A stretch of 58,933 bases of DNA, the filler included, from Dugesia japonica (Eukaryota): the NCBI GenBank assembly GCA_001938525.1. It is 5 parts of 5 records of this genome, joined end to end, with 100 filler letters (N's around TTAATTAATTAA, not from the genome) between each part and the next. Parts side by side here need not be neighbours in the genome. Positions count along the whole stretch, not along the records: positions 8,917 to 17,134 come from MQRL01300197.1; 4 more parts are not named here. One strand, written 5' to 3'. The position numbers and the translations under genes are program-made. Below, one piece after another: positions 8,873 through 56,342 of the stretch. Under the pieces are notes generated by a model. It did not search any database and was not told where the DNA came from. It saw only the letters and a list, made by a program, of their open reading frames with translations. Positions within the stretch are counted from its first letter, which is position 1. Each line of letters opens with the position of its first letter.

Positions 8873-9339
8873 NNNNNNNNNNNNNNNNNNNNNNNNNNNN
8901 NNNNNNNNNNNNNNNNTAATCAATTCTTCGTTTTCTCGACAGCTTTTTACAACTTTATTTTCTTTTTATTGTTTTATCCTAGATTTTATTTGATATTTCT
9001 TACACTTTTAACTTCAGTTATTATTATTTTATAATCATTTCCTGATCATTTCACAGATAAATATTTCTTTTATTTCGTATTATTTTCTTATTCATTTTCT
9101 TATTAACCTTTAATTTATTTCCTTCACTGTTTTTCATATTTCATAAAAGGCTGTTTCAGCCCAACATGTTTTTATAAAATGTACTTGATTTAATTCACTC
9201 TTGGATGAATTTTTCAGATATTCCAAAGCTATTCCAACAATTGAAAGACATTTGTTTTCTATTTGTTTTGAATTTTCCAATAGAGTTTTTATTATTCTAA
9301 TTTTTTTTGTTTTAAATTTGTACTTTTATTATGTTTTCT

Positions 9340-10249
9340 ACTTTATAGCTTTTATTTTGTGATCATATTTGTATTGATCTGCTGCTGTTTGAGGGATAAC
9401 TGGACTGGACTGACTTGGCGACATCTGAGGTGTGAATGACTGGTAGAGAGTATTGTGAAGGAACTCTAAATATCGTATTTCTTCTTCTTTCTCTTTTAAC
9501 TTCTTCTCCTATACGGATTCTAACTTTTTTCTCTTTTCCGTAAGTTTTTTCACTTAAGCTCGTAGGCCTTCGATCATTTTGTCCTTCTTTTCATCCCATT
9601 CTTTGGCGACCTCTAATTCTTTATTTGTTACAATGTTTTTCTTCATATTTGTCGTAGCTTGCTGCATGATTTGCGGGGCCAATATGGCGTCTAATCTATA
9701 ATTGTCCTTATTTGCCGCTATCAGCCCACTTTGTATATTCATTTCAGTTCACATTTCTGATTTTTGACTCTTTGCACTGTTTAACTTTCCAGCATCTGAT
9801 TTCAACTTGCTTAGTTTCCCTTGCACAACTTTCAGGTATGTCTCGAGATCCTCTACCTGATTTTTCTTTTTATCCGTCTTAACCACTTTATTTTTATTGT
9901 AGTCTCTAAGCATGGCCATCTGTTTCCAATGCTGGGCTTCTTATATAATATTTCTGTTTGGGTGTCGCACATATCTTAGTTCGTTCACTTTTCTTTGATT
10001 TTTCGTCCTCTATCTGGTCCACTTGTTCGTTTATTATATGATTCAAGAGTCGATTTCGTAATTTTAATGATATCGTTTCTGCTTCTACTTTTGGGCCTGT
10101 CGGATTGTGGCCGCCTATTGGTATTGAGTTTTGCTGCAAGGAATTTTCTTTAGGTCTTCCTCTTTAACAGGTTCTCCGGAGTATAATTTGTTTCTCAGAC
10201 GTCCGATCTGATCTCGAAGTATAGTTGGGTTGTTTGACAATTCTTGCAT
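9340..10249 (-). pseudogene. Degenerate ~300-aa Lys/Glu-rich, probably coiled-coil accessory ORF of unknown function
   Basis: Begins MQELSNNPTILRDQIGRLRNKLYSGE at 10249 and continues through track ORFs 9906-10139 and 9554-9742 with frameshifts and stops, to ...EIRYLEFLHNTLYQSFTPQMSPSQSSP. Confidence 0.5.
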
Positions 10250-10364
10250 CTAAATGATAAAGCGATTATAATTTGTTATAATTATTAAATATGATTAACT
10301 ATTAAATCGATTAGTCATTATGAATAAAATGAATGTGGATTAATATTTAATTAATATTTTAATA

Positions 10365-10473
10365 TTTTAATATTTTAATAATTTAATATTTAATTAATAA
10401 CCCGTTTAATAATGCTTATATTTTAATATTTTAATAATTTAATATTTAATTAATAACCCGTTTAATAATGCTT
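10365..10473. repeat. ~56-bp AT-rich tandem duplication within an intron-like spacer (10250-10764)
   Basis: TTTTAATATTTTAATAATTTAATATTTAATTAATAACCCGTTTAATAATGCTT occurs twice. Confidence 0.8.
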
Positions 10474-10996
10474 TGGGAATGCTTAATAACTCAATGCTTG
10501 TTCAATTTATAGTTATTAATTTTATGATTATTAACTCGTTTAATAATTTATTTTAATGATAAATCGATTATCATTATTATACCTTGTTGACCCATAGTTT
10601 TATAATTTAGTTTTCTTGTGTAATTATTAATTCGTTTAATAATGCTTCAACACTCGTTAACTAAAGTGACATGATTATCATTAAATAATTAGATTATCAA
10701 ATCGTTTAATAACACATTATTAATGTATTTAATAATCCGTTAAAATATAATTGAATTTGTTACCTTTACTTTCAGTACTCAACTTTGATTCCTTTTATCT
10801 TCTGGATAATTGAGTTTTTGTATTTCTTATTTGGCACAACTTTGCAATTACTTTCACAATTCATTTTCTCGGTACATGATTTGTTTGGTATTTTTATTTG
10901 AAGATTTCTACTTTTACTGTTTTTGTATTTTTGGACTTCTTATGCTTTTGTTTTTTATAATTTACAACTTTATATATACATTTATAATTTACTTTC

Positions 10997-12373
10997 CTAA
11001 CCCACGTTCCTTATCTCGATGAATATGCTATCATTTTTTACGAAGTTTGATAGCACATTTTTAATTGTTATAAACGTTGGGGATCATGATCCTAAGTTCA
11101 TCTCGCATGTGGGTTTCTGTTAGGAGATCCAGCTTGGTTTGCATTCAAATGTTTCACCATGTCCTTCTGACCACCTGTCGTATCCTGGGGTTATTCTCAT
11201 ACTGAATTTGTTTGAGATCGACCATTTCAACTTGTCATCATATTTTTCTTTCCTTATTATAAAGAAAACATTTATATGGTTTCCTTTTCCTGCGCCATCC
11301 CCATGAGGATAAATTCTTAGAGACGCGAGGTAACCTTCTTTAAATAAGTAAAATGGTGGGCTGGTATACTGTCCATCTTTCTCGTCGGGGAAGGATCTTG
11401 CAATGACCAATTTGGCGAGAAAATCTTCTATTTGCCATATATAATGGCATACAGAATACTTGGCATCTGATAGTGCTGAGGGTAAAGATATAGTGGTTTG
11501 ACTTGAATTTTCTTTTAAAGCACTCCATAATTCGTTTTTAGTTTCGTGTATTTTGCTAGATAAAACGTATATCAATTGAAGGGTATGGTTCTTTAGATTT
11601 TCTTATTATTGGTTTATTCTCTGTTCTAAATTAGAAATGATAGCCTGGATATGTTCTTTTGCTTTGTTGAACATATATTTGTTTACTTTCATTCGGGTTC
11701 CTTTAAATTTACATAGATACGGGCATTCTTTAAGTTCTTTAATGCATGTTGATTTATGAGCACTCACTTTTACTAATTCTTCACAACAATTGTTGGAACA
11801 TTTAACTATGAGTTCCTGGCATACTTGTATTTTAATAGAATTCAGGTGATTCTTCATTAGTTTTCTGAGAATCAATCGGTTGCAATTTTCACATTTTACT
11901 TCTACCATGAGACATGATTCGTTAACACGATTCTCTTTGTCGAGTTTAAATAGTAGTGTTTTACACTTTTCGCACATTATAGGAACTGTAGAGCAGTTCT
12001 TTGTATGTTCTTCCAGATTCATTATCTTTTCTTCTAATTCACATTTTTGGTATGGGCAAGTTCCTTGTAGCTCTGCTACTTCTCTGGTTATTGCTCGGTC
12101 GAGTAGTACTTGAGTAACTTCTTCACATTCGATATTAAAACATTTATTTACGTTCTCTCTAAGGTGTTTACTGATGCATTGATAACAATATCTGCATTCA
12201 CAGCTAATTTACATCTGTTCAAGCATTAATAAATTGCATTTGGTACATTTGAACCGCGTTTCTATTTCTTCTGATGACTCGAGCTTTTGTATTAGTTTTA
12301 CAAAATTATCTACTTTCTTGGCAATAAGTGTGAAATCTGACTGAAGTATACTGATTGGATTTGTTTATTGCAT
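10997..12373 (-). pseudogene. TRAF: Intronless TNF-receptor-associated factor (TRAF2/3/5-like): RING, TRAF zinc fingers, coiled coil, MATH/TRAF-C; about 6 premature stops, no frameshift
   Basis: Single frame of 459 codons. RING CTKC...ISCECRYCYQC...CFNIEC; DRAITREVAELQGTCPYQKC; zinc fingers in ORF 11606-12022; MATH YIWQIEDF...TSPPFY..EGYL..LRIYPHGDGAGKGNHINVFFII.K..YDDKLKW; C-terminus QKPTCEMNLGS..PTFI...FVKNDSIFIEI. Confidence 0.92.
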
Positions 12374-12510
12374 CTGAATATTTACAATTTGTTAATTGTT
12401 TCCATAATTATAATTCTATTTATCAAAGACTACGTAAATATAATAGAATTAAGATTTGTAAATTAGTCAGGCCTATACATTTATTTACAGTTGATTTTTA
12501 TTCTTTCGTT

Positions 12511-13008
12511 TTATTTTGGCAACGTTGAAAAAGATATGAATTGTTCATTCTCTTTACGTCTTTGTTCCTTATTAATCATTATATCTAATAAACTTCGTGT
12601 GCCTCTCGTATCTTCTAGTTCAATCTGCAATGCAACATTGTAATTTGTAATAGTTTGGATTTCTATTTTATTATTATCAATGATGTTTCTCTGCTGTTGG
12701 ATGATATTCAAGTAATAGTGGTGGGTATTGGTTGCTTCCAATAATAGGCGACGAGCTTCTAATAAAGCCGATTCTGTTGAAACTATTAATGAATTTAAAG
12801 TACCACAATGCTGTTCCCACAATTATTCTGTTGTAATATTTTTATACACTGGTACATCTAAGAGATTTATTTCATTTGCTGCTATAACTGGTGGATGAGG
12901 AAATACTATTTGAGGATTAAGTGACCTGAGAAAATAAATTCTGTTACTTATATTTGACTGTACACTGGAATGAAAGACTAGTCGTAGTAATTGATTAGCT
13001 TCTGCCAT
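12511..13008 (-). pseudogene. ~165-aa accessory ORF with C-terminal coiled coil, one premature stop
   Basis: Track ORFs 12823-13008 and 12511-12822 abut in the same frame across one TAA; heptad-like ALLEARRLLLEA...IELEDTR. Confidence 0.6.
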
Positions 13009-13109
13009 CTACAATATTATTTTTTTTATCAATTTTCTATATTATTTTCATAAATACAAACATATTCTGCATTGATATACTAATAATGTTTTGTGCAATA
13101 GGAGTTTAT

Positions 13110-15498
13110 TCATGTGAACTTGTATTGCGGTGGTCCACCAATATCATTTGACCACCTGATTCCGGCCCTATCGAATGGTAGTTGCTAATTATTATTTTCT
13201 AGGTTTCGCATTGCCACAGGAAGTTTTAATCCTTTATGCTGCCCTCTGAGTCGTTTGACTACTAATATTGTTGCTATTATACAGATTATGCAAAACATTA
13301 TTGAGGTTGTTGCTGCTAAAACATTCGCCTTCTAGTTCTCCATCTTTGATGTATCTATTGGAATTGCTGAGCTTATTTTTATTATTCCCGCATTGTAAAT
13401 TGATGCAATTTTCGTAGCGTTTGGTTTAGGCATATTTTTATTATTTGTTCTAGAAACGCTTCTGGTTTTGGCGTTAAAACATTAACTTCGTCTATTTGTG
13501 GTTCTGCTTGTTTTGTTTCTGCTTCTTTTACCGTTGTTATCTTTTTCGTAGTTAGTTTTTTGTGGTTGGTACCTTGGCTGTAGATGACACATTTTTATAT
13601 TTTATTTGTTGGATTGGTATTTGTCTGTTCTTCATTATAACAAGCTGTACGAATAATTTATTGTTAAATAGTACGAATTCTCTAATTAAACTGCCTCTCT
13701 CGAATCCTGAGCGTTCTACTGCTAATCTGTTCGTTGTATTTAACCATTGTTCAAGAATGTGGATCTGTTTGACTATTAAATTATTTGCATCTAGACTAGT
13801 CCACTCTTTTTTCGCAGTTTTGCTTGAATGTCTTATAAATGTGTTTATTTTCGTTTTCATTGTTATGGATTGCTTTTTTAGTTTCATAATATGTGGTTTG
13901 GTATCCTGCATTCGATATCGTTCAACGTTTATTTCTTGTCCAGAGAAATTCAGGACCATCACATATATTTTGTTGTAATTGAATTTTATTAGTTGTACGA
14001 TTATTATTGTTTCTGCCATTGAACATCCATTGGATTTTCCAATCCTGAATGTCTGCTTGGTTGTGGTAGTATACATATTCCGCTACTGTGTCATTATACT
14101 AGTTTCATATTCATTAGTGGACTTATTGTATTTGCCCACTCTTGTAAACCCTTCGTGGTTATCCCAACTGTCGTTGTTGTATTGGAATTTTACTATTTGT
14201 ACTGGTTCTGAAGCTTACAATTTTATATTCAGTCCTTCTTTGTTGTTTTTGAGTAACTTTCTTGTTTGCGGAGGCAATGCTGATCCACCTGCTATTCGAG
14301 TAAGAAACCATCTACCTGTTGATGCTCAGTATTTTTTAGCACGACTAGATTCTCGTTTTAAATGTTTCATTCGTTCTTCTACACAGTGATGGCAAAGTGT
14401 TTTTCAACATTTGGGTGATATTCGGATATTTTCGAGAAATTTATTATCACATATCGTTCAAGCTCCATTTTCTTGTCTGATTTCGGGATAATTAGCTAAT
14501 AGTTCTAAGTCATTTTGATGTTGATCCCATTCTTTGTCTTGCTTTTCAAATGCATGTTTCTTGTTGGATTTACGAATTTGGGTTTGCATTGTATTCGTTT
14601 CTTTAGTGTTTGATGTCACCTATTGAGTCTCTTGATCTTTGACTTTCTTGTTCTTTATTTCCTTGGAGGTTCTCTTTGGTGGCAATAGGGTTTCCATGCT
14701 CACTTTTTTTAATTTTACATTAATAGATCGTTCTATGCGTATTATTATCTCAGTAGTGCTTTTTAGACCGTTTATACATATTTATTTTGCGTATTTCATA
14801 GTAATTGGTAGTGGTTTGTTGATTGTTGTATCATCATAAAGACATCTTTTCTTTTGTTCATTTGCTTCATGAATTCGTTTAATTTCTTCTCTGACTCCAA
14901 ATGCAGAAGTTTCTAACTTACTTCTGACAGTTATTAGACAGTGGTAACACATTTTCTTTAATTATTTTCTGCTTATTGGCAATGTTGACGGTCGTAATTT
15001 TATATAAACTAGACATTTGATCTGCTTTGACTCAATTGGTTTTTCGGTTTTGTTTTCTTTTTTATTCTGTCGATCTTTGGTTTTCTGTTGAGTTATTGTC
15101 TGGTTGAAACCTGTGGTAATTGGAGTTATAATATTCTTTTTGCTGAAGTCGACTTCTCTGTTTTCTTGAAACTTTGACTGCTTAAAGTTCAGATACCATT
15201 CTGCCTGTTTAAATCCAACCGCTCTAATTTCTTGTCATTTTGCTTGCATAAAATTAGCTGCTTTAACTGTTTCTATTTTGTTGTCATTAGACAGTAAGCA
15301 CAATAATTCTTTATACATTCTTTGTTGATAGGAAGTTGTTTAGGTACTTCGCGGTATCTAAAACATTTATTGTCTTTGGATTGGTGTCTGTTTTTATCCT
15401 GTGTACGGTACAGTTCTCTCCATTATAGAGCTACCGTTGACTCTGATACCATTAATTCCTATCAAAAATAAATATTACCTTGGTAAAAATAAAATTAT
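13110..15498 (-). pseudogene. Degenerate env-like type-I membrane protein (~800 codons)
   Basis: Hydrophobic signal-like IILFLPR*YLFLIGING (15498-15448); Cys-containing ectodomain broken by stops and frameshifts (includes ORF 13552-14076); Thr-rich stalk; TM VLAATTSIMFCIICIIATILVV (13322-13257) followed by KRLR; tail ending GGPPQYKFT*. Lies directly 3' of the integrase. Confidence 0.6.
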
Positions 15499-15609
15499 AC
15501 TGTTCTTTGATCTATTAGTATTTTATTTATTCGTGTGACACCACATTTTTTACAAGAGTTTGTTTCTGATTTTTTGCTGACTTGTAACATACAAATTTTG
15601 TTCTGGCTG

Positions 15610-16890
15610 AGATCTGAGATCGTAATCTTTAACTTCTGTTGGTGATTGAATTCGTATTTCTTGTGGTTTTCGTCCACGTTTTAATCCTTTATACGGCAAT
15701 TTTTGCTCATTCTACGAGTCACTCGATGAGTATTGAGTTGGTTCTGTTCCTTCTAATTCTTGTACTTCTGTTTCTTAGATTTACGTGATGATTTGTTCAT
15801 CTGTCACTTTTGTTAACGCTTCCTTTTTGCATCGATTTACATGAATCCATAGTAGTTTCTGGAGTATTTTACCAACTAATCTGACTTTTATATTGGTTTC
15901 TGTGACTGCTAATACTTCGTAAGGCACTTTACCTAGTTTCCTATCCTTTGCTATCGTTCCGATTTCTATTTCCGGAGTATTAACTAATACTCTATCTTCT
16001 TCCTTGAACGCATGGGGTTTCGCTTTCTTGTCATGATAATCTTTGACACTTTCTTGATAATATTTGATATTTAATCGTGCTTCATTCCAGATCTCCTGCA
16101 TTTCCTCTTTCATTCGAATGATATACTCTTCTTGTTCCATATACTATAATATTGGAGGCTGGTATTCCAAATCGATTAGTAAATTACATTTTCTTTCAAA
16201 AAATGGAGTGTATTTTGTAGCTAAGTGTACTTGTGTTCGATAAAAAATAGTACCAAATGTATAAATTGATCCCAGTCTTTCTGTTTTCTGTCGACATAAC
16301 AATATATCTTATTAATTAAGGTTCAGCTAAATCTTTCTACTAGCCCGTCTATTTGTGAATGATATGGTGATGTTCTCAATTTTAATATTGGAAAATATCT
16401 AATGACTTCTGTAAAAATGTCACTCATGAAATTTCTGCCTTGATCAGTTAGGATTTTCTTAGGTGTACAATATCTGCTTCAAATTTACTTTACAAATATT
16501 TCTGCTATCGTTATGGTTTTTTGATTTTTCATTGGAAATGCTTCAGGGTATTTAGATAGATAATCCATACATACAAGAATGTATGAGCTTCCATCTACAG
16601 TTTCGGGTAATGTTCCGACTACGTCCATCGCCATGATCTCCATCGGTTTAGTTAGTATTGGCATTGGTTTTGATGATGCCTTTTCTAAAGTTCCTGTTCC
16701 TCTTCTGGAAGCGACTATTGACAATGTGCTATCCAATCCTTCACATCTTGAGCGATTCTTGACCAATAGTATTTGCGTCTTAATTTGGCTTCGGTTTTTC
16801 TTGCTGACATATGTCCTCCGACGACTTCATTATGGTATTTTTGTAAAATTCGTTCTCTGTGCAATTTTGGTACAATTATCTCCATTCTGT
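15610..16890 (-). pseudogene. Ty3/Gypsy integrase (zinc-binding, DDE core, GPY/F-like C-terminus), disrupted
   Basis: IVPKLHRERILQKYHNEVVGGHMSARKT..LRRKYYW..IAQDVKDWIAHC; MDVVGTLP...YILVCMDYLSKYPEAFP; PKKILTDQGRNF...TSPYH.Q.DGLVERF; ORF 15781-16140 with VPYEV and WIHVNRCK; in-frame YDLRS at 15624-15610. Confidence 0.93.
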
Positions 16891-17404
16891 GCCATTAACC
16901 GTCCCTTTTTAATTGTGTAACGACATCCATTTTCAGTAAGTGTTCTCTCATTTCTGGGTCACATAGTGATATGTATAATATCAACGATATTATTAACAAT
17001 AGCAATGGTGTTATAATCGATAGTAATATTAGCAATAATAATAATTTTAAATAATCTTATTAATATCTGATACTAATAATACTAATAGTAAGAGTATGAA
17101 TAATAATAATATTAGTAATAATAATAAGAAGAAGNNNNNNNNNNNNNNNNNNNNNNNNNNNNNNNNNNNNNNNNNNNNTTAATTAATTAANNNNNNNNNN
17201 NNNNNNNNNNNNNNNNNNNNNNNNNNNNNNNNNNTATTATTCTTTTATTGATTTGCCACAAAAAAATTCCCCGAATCAATCTGTCTATTTAATTTACCTC
17301 ACACCGACCACTGGCTTAGATTATAGATTGTTAAATGAAGTTGCAGAAAGACCAATTTTTCCTATTCCAAACAATAAAGATTTAGACGATCTCATCAAGA
17401 ATAT

Positions 17405-50411: not shown

Positions 50412-51751
50412 GTTTAGATTAAGGAAACGATTTGCTGTTGTAATCAACCATAAAACAATTGAATTGAATAGTTAATGAGAAAATTAATATTATTGAAGAA
50501 TTTATAAAGTAAAAATCACGTTAAATTTTTAATCCTTATCAAATGAATGTAAAATCTAAGTTTTTCACTCAATATAATAAAATTGCAAACTTTAATTATT
50601 CAAAAGAAATTAACAATCACTAAATCAGTTATTTTCTGATGTTGAAAATTGAATGAAAAATTTTATAAAATTTTTCAATTCACTAATTCTGCAAATAAGC
50701 ACATTTGTTCTATAAATAAATTGGAAGAAAGAAAAAAAAATAAATTTCTAACTGATTTTATTTTAAACGTATTTTGATAAAAGAAAAGCTTGTAAAATTT
50801 TTAAAAAAAAATTAAATATTTAAAAATAATTTTTAAAAAATATTTTAATTTTTAAAAGTAAGTATTTTTAAGATTCAATAAATTAAAAGGCGAAAAAAAA
50901 CAAAAAAAAATTATTTCATTTCTTGTTTATTTTCTACAAAAAAAATGAAATTAATAAATTGTTTGTCACAATAAAACAAAAATTTTTTAAAAAAAATAGG
51001 AAATATACTATATAAAGAATTTTACAATTTTTAGTTTGATTCACAATATTACAAGTTTCTACAAATAAATTTAATCAGTTGTTTTTTATTTGTTAAAAGC
51101 TAAAAAGACAAAATATTCTTAATATTCAAACTAATTTAACTCATTTAAATATTTCAATTAAACAATGCAATTAAGATAACCCATGCCTCTGAAATTCAAA
51201 AAATATTTATAACCTAAAATTTAAATATTTATACATTCAAAAATAAAATCCAAATACATATTTTTAATATTTAAAATTAACCTTTCAAATAAAATTTTCA
51301 AATAAAAACATACTAAAATAATTTTAAGGATAAATTGTAATAAGCTATAATTGTTTTAATACACTCTAAAATTTAAGAATTTATTATTTATCTTAAATTT
51401 TTTATTTATAATAAACTTATTAATAATTAGCAAAACATTTGATACATATTCAAGTTCTTTCTCATGTAGTTAATAAAAGTAATGTGCAACCATTGATTAC
51501 GAACTTTTCTTTTTTAAAATAATCAAGTACTGATCATAAGATTAACATAATTATTTATTTTTTTTATTGTGAATCGCAACTAACCGAAAAATTTCAATTT
51601 TTTTATGTAAATTTCCTGTATGTAATAATAAAAATTGAATATTAAAAATATAAATTTTCATTAATAATTTTGCTTTAAAATTTTTTAGATATTTGTATAA
51701 TTTTATTGAAAAATTTTTTTTGAAATACAAAATTTTAAATATTTAATTTTA

Positions 51752-52754
51752 GGGTTAATTACAAAATAACCCACTTGAAAAATTTTATAACCCACATTTA
51801 AGTTTTTTTTACAAAAATAACCCACAATCAAANNTTTTTTTATGAAAATAACCTACTTGAAAAAATATATGACTTAAATTAAACTCAATATTGACATTGG
51901 CTTCAAAAGTAATATAATTTTAAGACAATAAAAATATAAAAGATTTGTTATGACAGTTTTAAAATAAAATAAAGATAAAAAATTAATTTTTATTTTTATT
52001 TCTTATTTTCCGGGCACTTATTCTTATTATGTCCTTGTTTTCTGCAAATACTGCATTTATTAGCCTTTAATAAAGCGACTTCTCCAGCAGATTTCTTCCT
52101 TTTGGATTTCTTAGGACGTCCAGCACGATTAGTTTTATAAGCATTAACAACATTACATTTTAAAATCATATCTGGATCGATATATTTCATAGTATTTGCA
52201 TATAAAAGTTTTAATGAGTTCAGAGCTCTTTTGGGGCTAATAAAAATTTTCTTATCAAATCCATTAATCATTATTGCCGCCGCATATGCGTGTTTACATG
52301 GAAATATTTCAATCCAGCTATCATTCCACAACTGCAACTAAGTTTATTAAAATCCACTATTCTATAAATTGTTGATGTACTCGTACTAGTAACTTCAAAC
52401 ACATTACCAATGGATTTAGATGCAGCGTTTAAGAATTTGCCTCGTGAAGCAGATAACAAGGACATAATAAGAATAAGTGCCCGGAAAATAAGAAATAAAA
52501 ATCAAAAATTTTTTTTATCTGTATTTTATTTTAAAACTGTCATTAATATATCTTTTATAATTTTATTGTCTTAAAATTATAATACTTTTGAAGCCAATGT
52601 TTAATTGAGTTTAATTTTGAAGTTTAATTTAAGTCATATGTTTTTTCAAGTAGGTTATTTTCATAAATAAAATTTGATTGTGGGTTATTTTTGTAAAAAA
52701 AACTTAAATGTGGGTTTTAAAATTTTTTAAGTGGGTTATTTTTGTAATTAACTC
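51752..52754 (-). mobile_element. MULE/Mutator-like element, 1003 bp, ~290-bp inverted arms, 9-bp TSD
   Basis: Arms 51752-~52037 and ~52457-52754; TSD TTAATTTTA / TTAACTTTA (8 of 9); repeated AACCCAC motifs in the arms. Confidence 0.9.
51996..52456 (-). pseudogene. MULE transposase C-terminal fragment (SWIM finger and CCHC knuckle)
   Basis: YRIVDFNKLSCSCG / FPCKHAYAA (SWIM, frameshifted), GRPKKSKRKKS, CSICRKQGHNKNKCP. Confidence 0.88.
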
Positions 52755-52942
52755 TTAACTTTATCGAAATACATTTTACAAATAGAANNNNNNNNNNNNN
52801 NNNNNNNNNNNNNNNNNNNNNNNNNNNNNNNNNNNNNNNNNNNNNNNNNNNNNNNNNNNNNNNNNNNNNNNNNNNNNNNNNNNNNNNNNNNNNNNNNNNN
52901 NNNNNNNNNNNNNNNNNNNNNNNNNNNNNNNNNNNNNNNNNN

Positions 52943-54323: not shown

Positions 54324-56342
54324 TTTATGGGGTATTATTAACTAAATTAATAAGTCAGTTGTTTAAATATTATAATAAATCTTTACTTAACATTTGAATT
54401 CTTATTACTGTATTCTGAAATCCGATGTTGAAGATAGAATAACTGGCGACTACGCCAAAAATATTAATAACAAGATATCAAGAGAAAAAATTAATTATTG
54501 ATTCACTTTCGAAGAAACCACAAGACTTGTTAAGTTTCAATNTTCGAAAATATGATGNACNAAATTTTGAAGAAGCTACAAAATAGATTACAGATATTGA
54601 ANAATGGCTGCCAGTAAATAATTTGTATTTAATGAGTGCATTCCATTTATTACTATCTGATGAGACTGTTGGTTTATAGAAAGATTTTACAACCAATTCC
54701 ACAACAAAAGATTAAGCAAAATCTTGGTTTATCGATACATCCACAATATAAAAATTCGATTTCAGATATGTTTGTCGAATTAGCTGGAATTAAGCAACAA
54801 GATAATGAAAGATTTACAACGTTCAAGATAAAACCTCGTTTGGATATTTTTATCCAGAATTAAATCGTGTCGAAATAAGAAATTATGTTATTTCAAAACG
54901 ATCAAAAGGTTCTGCTTTAGAAGATAAACTAATTTAAAAACCGAAAATGAGCATTGAAGAACAAAATTCAGTTGAATCAATTACAAAATTCAGTCATAAT
55001 TCTGAGAGAAATTCGGGAAGTAATTTTTCATCTGGACTTATAATTTCTAATAGAAATTTTGAAATATTTAATAATAGAAATAACTAGAACAATGAAAATT
55101 CAAGATATCAACCATCAGTTTCAATGAAGCATATTACAAGAAAATTGTATAATAAATACAATGGATTGCACAACCAAAAGATGAAATTTTAAAACCAGGT
55201 CAATGTTATTGTTGTGAAGAAAGAGATCATTTAGGTTTTGAATGTCCATTAAAGAACAAGTGTTTGATATGTGAAAAAGAAGAACATTTATTCAGAAATT
55301 GTCACTTATTGAATAATCGGAATAGGAATTTTAATAAGCCTATATTATGTATTTATGATGAAAATAATGAAGAGTATTGTGAAGATGAAATAGTAAATCA
55401 TGATATTGAAGAACAAAAAAACCAGAACAACCCTGTTACTTACATTTCGTACGTGTGGTTGAATCAATAAATGATCCTGTAAATCAAAATGATATGAAGA
55501 ATAATGCGATGAACCAGACGAGTGATGGAAGGCAGTGGAGTAGTGTGGAAGTTGAAAATGTTGCAATTAAAATGTTGTCGGACTCAGGAGCTGCGATAAA
55601 TAAAAATTGTGAATAAAAAGCGTTGGGAGAAGATTGGAAAACCGTATTTATTAGATACGAATATTATGCTCAGTGGTGTATTTTCTAGAATGAGTGAAAA
55701 GCCGTTGGGATCTGTGTCAGTAAATGTGAGATGGAACGTTTAGATTCGATTAGTAAATATATTAATATTAATTTTTCTAAATTTCATTGGTGGAATAGAC
55801 ATAATGAAGAGTTTTGGAATAAAACTAGTAGAAATAAACAATATTGATACTTCTATAATCAAAAACAATCATTCAGATACAGAAAGAATCAGAATTGCCT
55901 TAGAATATTTCAATAATCAAAACAACAATACATTGAAAAATTTGATAAAAATCTATGGAAACATTTTTATAGATTGAAATTCGATCTGGGTCATACAACA
56001 TTGATAAAGCATGAAATAAAAGTAAATAGTGCACCAGTACTGATACAACCCAGATGTCAACCAATGCACTTAGAATCAAAAATCGACGAACTAGTAGAAA
56101 ATATAATCAGAAAGAAAAATGATTTTCAATATGAAGGACTATTTCAGATAATTAGATATATTTATCCTCATCAAGTGGAATTCAGATGGAATTAAACAAC
56201 GAAGAATAAAATGGTTAAAGAAGTGGACAGTTTCTTAAAGAAAGGGAAAGTTATGGCGTATTATTAATTAAAATATTATTTAACTATTTATATTATAATA
56301 AATCTTTGCTAAGTGTGTTACATTTGAATTCTTATTAATGTA
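54324..56342 (+). mobile_element. Internally deleted Ty3/Gypsy LTR retrotransposon (~2 kb) with short LTRs
   Basis: Diverged direct repeats TTATGG.GTATTATTAA...TATTATAATAAATCTTT...ACATTTGAATTCTTATTA.TGTA at ~54325 and ~56251; PBS-like TGGCGAC at 54444; PPT AAAGAAAGGGAAAG before 56251. Confidence 0.8.
54500..56195 (+). pseudogene. Degenerate gag-protease-RT start fused to integrase tail
   Basis: Two CCHC knuckles CYCCEERDHLGFEC and CLICEKEEHLFRNC (~55204-55302); protease LSDSGAAIN (~55575); DLGHTTLIKHEIKVNSAPV.IQPR (pre-RT) running into YEGLFQII (GPF-like). Confidence 0.8.

Follow-up and report, generated by a model that had tools for sequence, protein, structure and literature searches.

A decayed full-length TRAF gene behind a Gypsy-type integrase in DNA of a probable triclad, likely the captured accessory gene of a retroelement

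Gene content of the TRAF contig

The window, that is, the whole stretch of 58,933 nucleotides analysed here, is AT-rich eukaryotic DNA with many gaps. A TRAF pseudogene is located in the contig at 8917–17134, which has a gap at each end; there, five coding units (integrase, ORF-A, ORF-B, TRAF and ORF-C) follow each other on the minus strand, the TRAF being the fourth:

15550–16963 (−): Gypsy-type integrase, decayed and 5′-truncated (Integrase_H2C2 E 5e-17, rve E 1e-10)
16963–16717 (−): H2C2 finger of the integrase
16700–16266 (−): DDE core of the integrase, with the D, D and E motifs located
up to the stop at 15552–15550 (−): C-terminal module of the integrase
13110–15546 (−): ORF-A, about 810 codons, decayed and frameshifted (frame-wise stop counts, hydropathy)
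13257–13313 (−): predicted transmembrane helix of ORF-A (Kyte-Doolittle 19-mer mean 2.61)
12511–13008 (−): ORF-B, 165 codons with one stop (frame-wise stop counts)
10997–12373 (−): full-length intronless TRAF pseudogene with six internal stops
10253–10996 (no strand): AT-rich non-coding spacer with short tandem repeats, between TRAF and ORF-C
9338–10249 (−): ORF-C, about 300 codons, decayed and frameshifted, lysine/glutamate-rich and coiled-coil-like
8917–9337 (−): A-rich 3′ tail that contains numerous AATAAA words and is cut off by an assembly gap before any visible element end

The integrase carries stops and at least two frameshifts; upstream of it lies low-complexity sequence and then, 170 nt away, a gap. 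H2C2 finger, DDE core and C-terminal module are all present, as in the integrase that closes pol in Ty3/Gypsy elements, and the nearest proteins are three Gypsy Pol-type proteins (37–44%), among them a complete PR-RT-RH-IN polyprotein and one labelled 412-type Pol.

ORF-A starts with an ATG at 15546, 3 nt past the integrase stop, and occupies the env position. It is predicted to end with one transmembrane helix and a short basic tail; the helix is the sole segment above 1.6 on the Kyte-Doolittle scale in the three frames of 12400–15600, and a single C-terminal transmembrane anchor in a post-pol ORF, a trait of the errantivirus type, thus appears to be present. No family was matched in Pfam (three frames), among longer proteins or in the PDB (best E 0.59), nor did Pfam reveal homology to Gypsy Env or baculovirus F, with decay lowering the sensitivity of these searches; the matches in the Atlas are unnamed and of low recognition. 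A single-sequence model had a pLDDT of 32 and an uninformative fold, and a furin site (R-x-K/R-R) is absent from the main frame. The cytoplasmic tail ends with a PPxY word (13139–13110, minus strand), which may be due to chance; words of this kind are bound by WW-domain ligases and act as late domains in viruses. There are also two similar CxxC words in ORF-A, at 14949 and 14394 (minus strand), the second with RING-like spacing; a RING considered there on account of the Cys spacing (about 14450–14390) was dropped as it has no support from Pfam. ORF-B gave no informative family match, Atlas included, and ORF-C none above the Pfam cut-off. Neither tRNA nor Rfam matches were obtained, and BIR, BCL2 and ankyrin domains are lacking in the roughly 8 kb seen.

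The TRAF pseudogene and its relatives

The initial annotation had joined an unannotated RING, two shorter ORFs and a C-terminal tail into one TRAF frame interrupted by point stops only, which is confirmed by translation and alignment. The minus strand from 12373 to 10997 reads as 459 codons, terminal stop counted, with internal stops at codons 3, 55, 256, 257, 418 and 430, while the remaining two minus-strand frames contain 42 and 33 stops; composition alone would predict 36 stops in the TRAF frame (P(≤6) = 8e-10). The earliest stop is at codon 3, so the copy is dead from its start, and with six internal stops no intact protein can be read from it; it is without a function of its own. Compared with intact relatives, the protein aligns over its whole length (51%, 99% of the query covered, E 3e-144), and since the largest insertion relative to them is seven residues and frameshifts number zero, the gene is intronless. 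Its domains are in the order RING, zinc fingers, coiled coil and MATH:

12125–12247 (−): RING finger, Cys replacing the usual His ligand (matched by TRAF6 RING-zinc finger chains at E 4e-11)
11708–12061 (−): TRAF-type zinc finger region (zf-TRAF E 0.012, under the Pfam cut-off; Cys/His columns)
11507–11695 (−): coiled coil, TRAF-N (helices 227–254 and 259–289 in the model)
11009–11446 (−): MATH/TRAF-C domain (PF21355 E 2e-21; Foldseek TRAF3 4ghu)

With stops replaced by X, the protein matches Pfam TRAF-mep_MATH (PF21355) above cut-off, and the TRAF-C domains of TRAF3, TRAF5 and TRAF2 are matched with E values of 3e-20 to 2e-17, that of TRAF3 being the lowest (3e-20). Over the whole protein, 25 of 27 conserved Cys/His columns are kept. 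A structure predicted from a six-row alignment (mean pLDDT 62) contains the zinc-finger region, a long coiled coil (pLDDT about 75–82 for residues 241–280) and the MATH sandwich, its best Foldseek match being TRAF3 (4ghu, E 5.5e-13). Judged from sequence and model, the window copy has the marks of the family: MATH/TRAF-C, RING with TRAF zinc fingers, and a coiled coil ahead of MATH. Human TRAF3, TRAF2 and TRAF6 (PDB 1kzz, 4ghu, 1ca9, 3hcs) have the same TRAF-C fold and RING-zinc finger module but a His ligand in their canonical RING, and they are non-mobile host genes.

The RING was found at 12247–12125, practically where it had been placed, and the motif ISCECRYC, with Cys in place of the usual His, is indeed there; it is not, however, peculiar to this copy. 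Cys occupies the position in 19 of 22 rows of the TRAF clade to which the copy belongs versus 5 of 112 rows outside, where 78 of 112 have His, and the Cys-type RING also occurs in named, host-annotated TRAFs including three Dendrocoelum proteins. Being common to the clade, it is a trait of the lineage and no mark of capture, and was rejected as an element-specific feature.

The closest proteins to the window TRAF are free of stops: P0002 (52%), P0159 (50%) and P0010 (43%) over full length, and the partial P0009. With these four it forms a clade (support 100/100) on a long stem (1.05). The parent clade (100/100, 24 rows) contains all four named triclad TRAFs, that is, Dendrocoelum lacteum TRAF-2, -4 and -5 and Dugesia japonica TRAF2-like A; it is from this placement that the host is taken to be a probable triclad. 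These trees were made with FastTree (134 rows of 250–740 aa, longer multi-MATH and non-TRAF rows excluded) and IQ-TREE (32 rows, 8 of them outgroup rows chosen from the 134-row tree). The triclad host TRAFs, to which Smed-TRAF-2A/B also belong (TRAF passages of PMC7586133), have the same domain order as the window copy; in contrast, identity to the nearest named one is only about 29%, and the window lineage lies on its long stem and in a block resembling a mobile element. No close parent gene is among the protein matches and no intron-bearing one among the sequences compared. Of 125 deeply conserved columns, the window copy retains 68 and its relatives 75–79. As four relatives at 43–52% are stop-free, the pattern fits long purifying selection on the lineage with later decay of the window copy; the relatives are on contigs of 1.3–2.8 kb, and so this selection could have acted on them as host genes.

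Four further loci, L001–L004, were obtained among 339 pattern matches in metagenome contigs, each 1.1–2.1 kb long; viral contigs (0/35, 0/1 and 0/8 pattern matches) and prokaryote genomes (0/113) contained no related loci. L001–L004 encode TRAFs of the same wider clade, of a lineage different from the window copy and with a mutual similarity of 71–80%; they are intronless over the part seen, some are broken, and their short AT-rich flanks are without integrase. They look like a separate multicopy, partly decayed subfamily of TRAF-like genes in which the zinc-finger region is shortened and the upstream DNA is alike (71–80% identity); the MATH domain of L003 is reached through frameshifts. The same loci bear on the earlier suggestion that the lack of introns reflects capture of an mRNA. 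The gene is intronless as claimed, but with L001–L004 likewise intronless and no integrase in view there, the absence of introns alone is no proof of capture via mRNA and was rejected as such.

A second case of integrase next to TRAF may be represented by P0021, a single predicted protein in which about 60 residues before the TRAF match the C-terminal module of the window integrase in frame (16/36 identical, E 4e-6; none of 1,000 shuffles as good). A profile of integrase tails, which included the tail of the window's own integrase, matched one of 153 proteins, P0021, with E 1e-7 (next best 1.8); scored only against the three integrases from outside the window, the match becomes borderline, with 4, 2 and 6 of 1,000 shuffles doing as well. 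The TRAF of P0021 groups with D. japonica TRAF2-like A (100/98), outside the window clade, and this different lineage suggests a separate integrase-TRAF association and, with it, repeated capture.

The carrier and the origin of the TRAF

The gaps between the first four units, from integrase to TRAF, are 3, 101 and 137 nt. Ten of eleven 1-kb windows within 10990–16990 combine a strand A-T skew of at least 0.2 with a GC content of at least 0.30 as opposed to 0 of 93 outside the contig, a contrast that partly reflects coding versus non-coding DNA. Stops per 100 codons, counted in frames picked by eye and with ORF-C excluded, amount to 1.3 in the TRAF, 1.2, 2.1 and 1.8 in the integrase pieces, 2.0 and 0 in those of ORF-A and 0.6 in ORF-B; the TRAF is within the range of the integrase. 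The fraction of A at four-fold sites, 0.49 in the TRAF and 0.49–0.62 in the other measured units, was rejected as strong evidence because L001–L004 likewise have 0.39–0.58. Owing to their like composition and like decay, integrase, ORF-A, ORF-B and TRAF look like one unit that decayed together, and the composition and level of decay common to the measured units make the TRAF most likely element cargo. The retroelement setting asserted by the initial annotation is upheld to this extent, as the TRAF and a Gypsy-type integrase belong to the same compositional and decay unit.

Taking all evidence together, the TRAF is very probably cargo of an integrase-bearing mobile element, and there is a good case for that carrier being an LTR retroelement. 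On the preferred reading, a Ty3/Gypsy LTR element in a probable triclad likely captured it long ago as an accessory gene: the element would have taken up a host TRAF and carried it under selection, and the copy in the window would later have died as a whole.

Alternatively, an intronless host TRAF may have turned pseudogene and come to adjoin a Gypsy fragment by chance in a repeat-rich region. L001–L004 are same-clade intronless TRAFs in AT-rich flanks without an integrase in view, the host family is large (121–282 MATH transcripts according to the TRAF passages of PMC7586133) and transposon debris makes up most of the window, all of which would suit such an event; it is nevertheless improbable, as the units lie on one strand with 3–137 nt between the first four, are similarly decayed and continuous in composition on either side of the TRAF, the block extends beyond the TRAF into ORF-C, and the nearest named host TRAF is so distant. 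Synteny is of no help here: Pfam recognised no host gene in the flanks, the single match among 65 flank ORFs being an A32-type ATPase, and host synteny is therefore unreadable.

The carrier could also be a DNA transposon of the Ginger type, equipped with an integrase resembling that of Gypsy, in which case the TRAF would be mobile without having been captured by reverse transcription. Neither gag, protease, RT nor RNase H was found by tblastn with full Pol, and self-comparison yielded no LTR pair, target-site duplication or flanking direct repeat; RT and LTRs are invisible because the contig ends in gaps, and tblastn missed gag/protease-like debris at about 55–56 kb of the window and is therefore of limited sensitivity for decayed pieces. 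While this lack, and integrase homology that starts directly after low-complexity sequence, would agree with a Ginger-type carrier, the integrase matches include the PR-RT-RH-IN polyprotein and the 412-type Pol, the membrane ORF right behind the integrase stop and the A-rich strand bias fit an element with an RNA stage, and inverted ends were not seen, which makes such a carrier quite improbable.

Highly improbable is the possibility that the TRAF was a passive passenger, a processed copy that landed in one copy of the element and was never of use to it. The copy is dead from codon 3 on and its gene order did not turn up at a second locus, as such a passenger would lead one to expect, but the TRAF is no more decayed than the integrase, and its lineage has stop-free members at 43–52% identity with conserved zinc ligands; furthermore, the hallmarks of a processed pseudogene are wanting, there being no poly(A) tract 3′ of the TRAF stop and no close parent gene among the sequences compared. 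A Polinton as carrier was rejected because the ORFs are all on one strand, the nearest matches are Gypsy Pol, and the ATPase fragment of the flanks is 18 kb off, beyond two gaps.

Expression, function and relation to known elements

A YAG directly precedes three of the downstream starts:

12374–12376 (−): YAG directly 5′ of the TRAF ATG, splice-acceptor-like
13011–13009 (−): YAG directly 5′ of the ORF-B start
10252–10250 (−): YAG directly 5′ of the ORF-C start

This is 3 of 4 downstream starts versus 13 of 166 sense-strand ATGs (binomial 0.002, without the TRAF 0.017), a pattern noted post hoc; of the three starts, that of the TRAF alone has homologues behind it. In each case the 12 nt before the YAG are free of any other AG and a branch-like word lies upstream, which suggests, from sequence features, that the downstream ORFs were reached by splicing; for the TRAF, spliced expression in the active element seems about an even prospect. 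The active element would express it from a spliced message with the YAG before the ATG as acceptor, either in cis from a 5′ leader or by spliced-leader trans-splicing. The former is how complex retroviruses express accessory genes. The latter is known in S. mediterranea and resolves operons in flatworms, as described in a section of PMC12582326.

TRAFs couple receptors to signalling for survival, death and immunity, and more cells died when two planarian TRAFs were knocked down (TRAF passages of PMC7586133). Further, apoptosis of stem cells is reportedly averted by the captured IAP of Burro1 (Lee et al. 2026, PMID 41916287, as cited in a passage of PMC13465017). The element TRAF protein would act as a trimeric adaptor and RING ubiquitin ligase, and might bias the death and immune signalling of its host so that the cell carrying the element survives, as the Burro1 IAP reportedly does. 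Such a pro-survival role, argued by analogy from TRAF signalling and the Burro1 precedent, is tentative and somewhat less likely than its absence; a decoy role is a possible alternative.

TRAF/MATH cargo in planarian Gypsy elements has already been published: the giant Gypsy-like LTR retrotransposons Burro and GYPSM1 carry MATH_TRAF_C, BIR, BCL2-like and env-like modules; MATH is either part of the gag-pol polyprotein or encoded by an accessory ORF upstream, and env is placed between gag and pol (PMC6431247). Compared by published description, these and the window element are alike in being flatworm Gypsy-type elements that have a TRAF-family module and cargo related to apoptosis and ubiquitin, together with an env-like region, further accessory ORFs and tandem repeats in their interior. 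Burros exceed 30 kb and carry BIR, BCL2 and ankyrin cargo; about 8 kb of the window element are visible, and none of these domains is in the part seen. The window element also departs from the Burro layout because its TRAF is a complete RING-zinc finger-coiled coil-MATH gene, in a separate ORF behind integrase and membrane ORF, 3.2 kb downstream of the integrase stop. Burro1 B-IAP, as far as it is described in the passage at hand, is likewise a captured host signalling gene with a RING borne by a planarian Gypsy element, but it is an IAP and no TRAF, and was shown to be functional whereas the window TRAF copy is dead. With env-bearing Gypsy elements and complex retroviruses that have 3′ accessory genes, such as the foamy-like fish ERVs (PMC6431247), the window element has in common pol, a membrane protein and accessory ORFs on one strand; it differs in that ORF-A is without detectable Env homology and in that its integrase is of the Gypsy type. 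The new feature here is that a TRAF of full length follows an integrase and an env-like ORF. Among the titles and abstracts searched, a set with few subscription papers and no Repbase entries, none describes a full-length TRAF in such a position or credits the TRAF expansion to element cargo.

This expansion (121–282 MATH/TRAF transcripts in planarians; TRAF passages of PMC6109357 and PMC7586133) is of a significance called unresolved in the corresponding passage of PMC8807557. The TRAF passages of these three papers draw no link from the expansion to transposons, the stems “transpos” and “retro” are absent from PMC7586133, and the portions of PMC8532177 and PMC11410931 consulted do not mention TRAFs. 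Part of the planarian TRAF surplus may be transposon cargo, and element cargo as a cause of TRAF expansion, put forward in the initial annotation, is plausible. If whole TRAFs travel in Gypsy elements, some of the MATH/TRAF transcripts counted are cargo of mobile elements; inventories of immune genes and RNAi screens would then have to be read anew, and the Burro1 IAP would exemplify a broader strategy by which flatworm retroelements carry host survival-signalling genes. A broader scenario, possible yet rather doubtful, is that triclads contain Gypsy elements other than Burros which bear an env and are laid out in the manner of complex retroviruses, that these captured whole TRAFs several times independently and steer host death and immune signalling through spliced or trans-spliced accessory expression, and that they account for a substantial part of the planarian TRAF expansion.

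Further probable or possible mobile DNA, and tandem repeats, occur elsewhere in the window. At 34160–35376 (minus strand), short decayed ORFs are clustered, among them an A32-type packaging ATPase (Pox_A32 in Pfam, E 1e-6); this is probably Polinton/Maverick debris. Zinc-knuckle-like, protease-like and RT-start-like peptide debris at 55156–56195 (plus strand; zf-CCHC_2 E 0.02) probably represents another Gypsy fragment, unrelated to the first and lying on the other strand. A pair of 316-nt inverted repeats (89%) around some 400 nt is located at 51745–52761, which resembles an internally deleted Mutator-type DNA transposon; inside the pair, at 51996–52337, a SWIM/zinc-knuckle-like peptide is encoded. 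Another pair, of 130 nt (87%) around a gapped interval (28146–28275 and 29071–29194), is possibly a small non-autonomous DNA transposon. Finally, tandem arrays with units of 133–134, 43 and 31 nt are found at 75–770, the shorter ones with a common GTTGCCATGG core.
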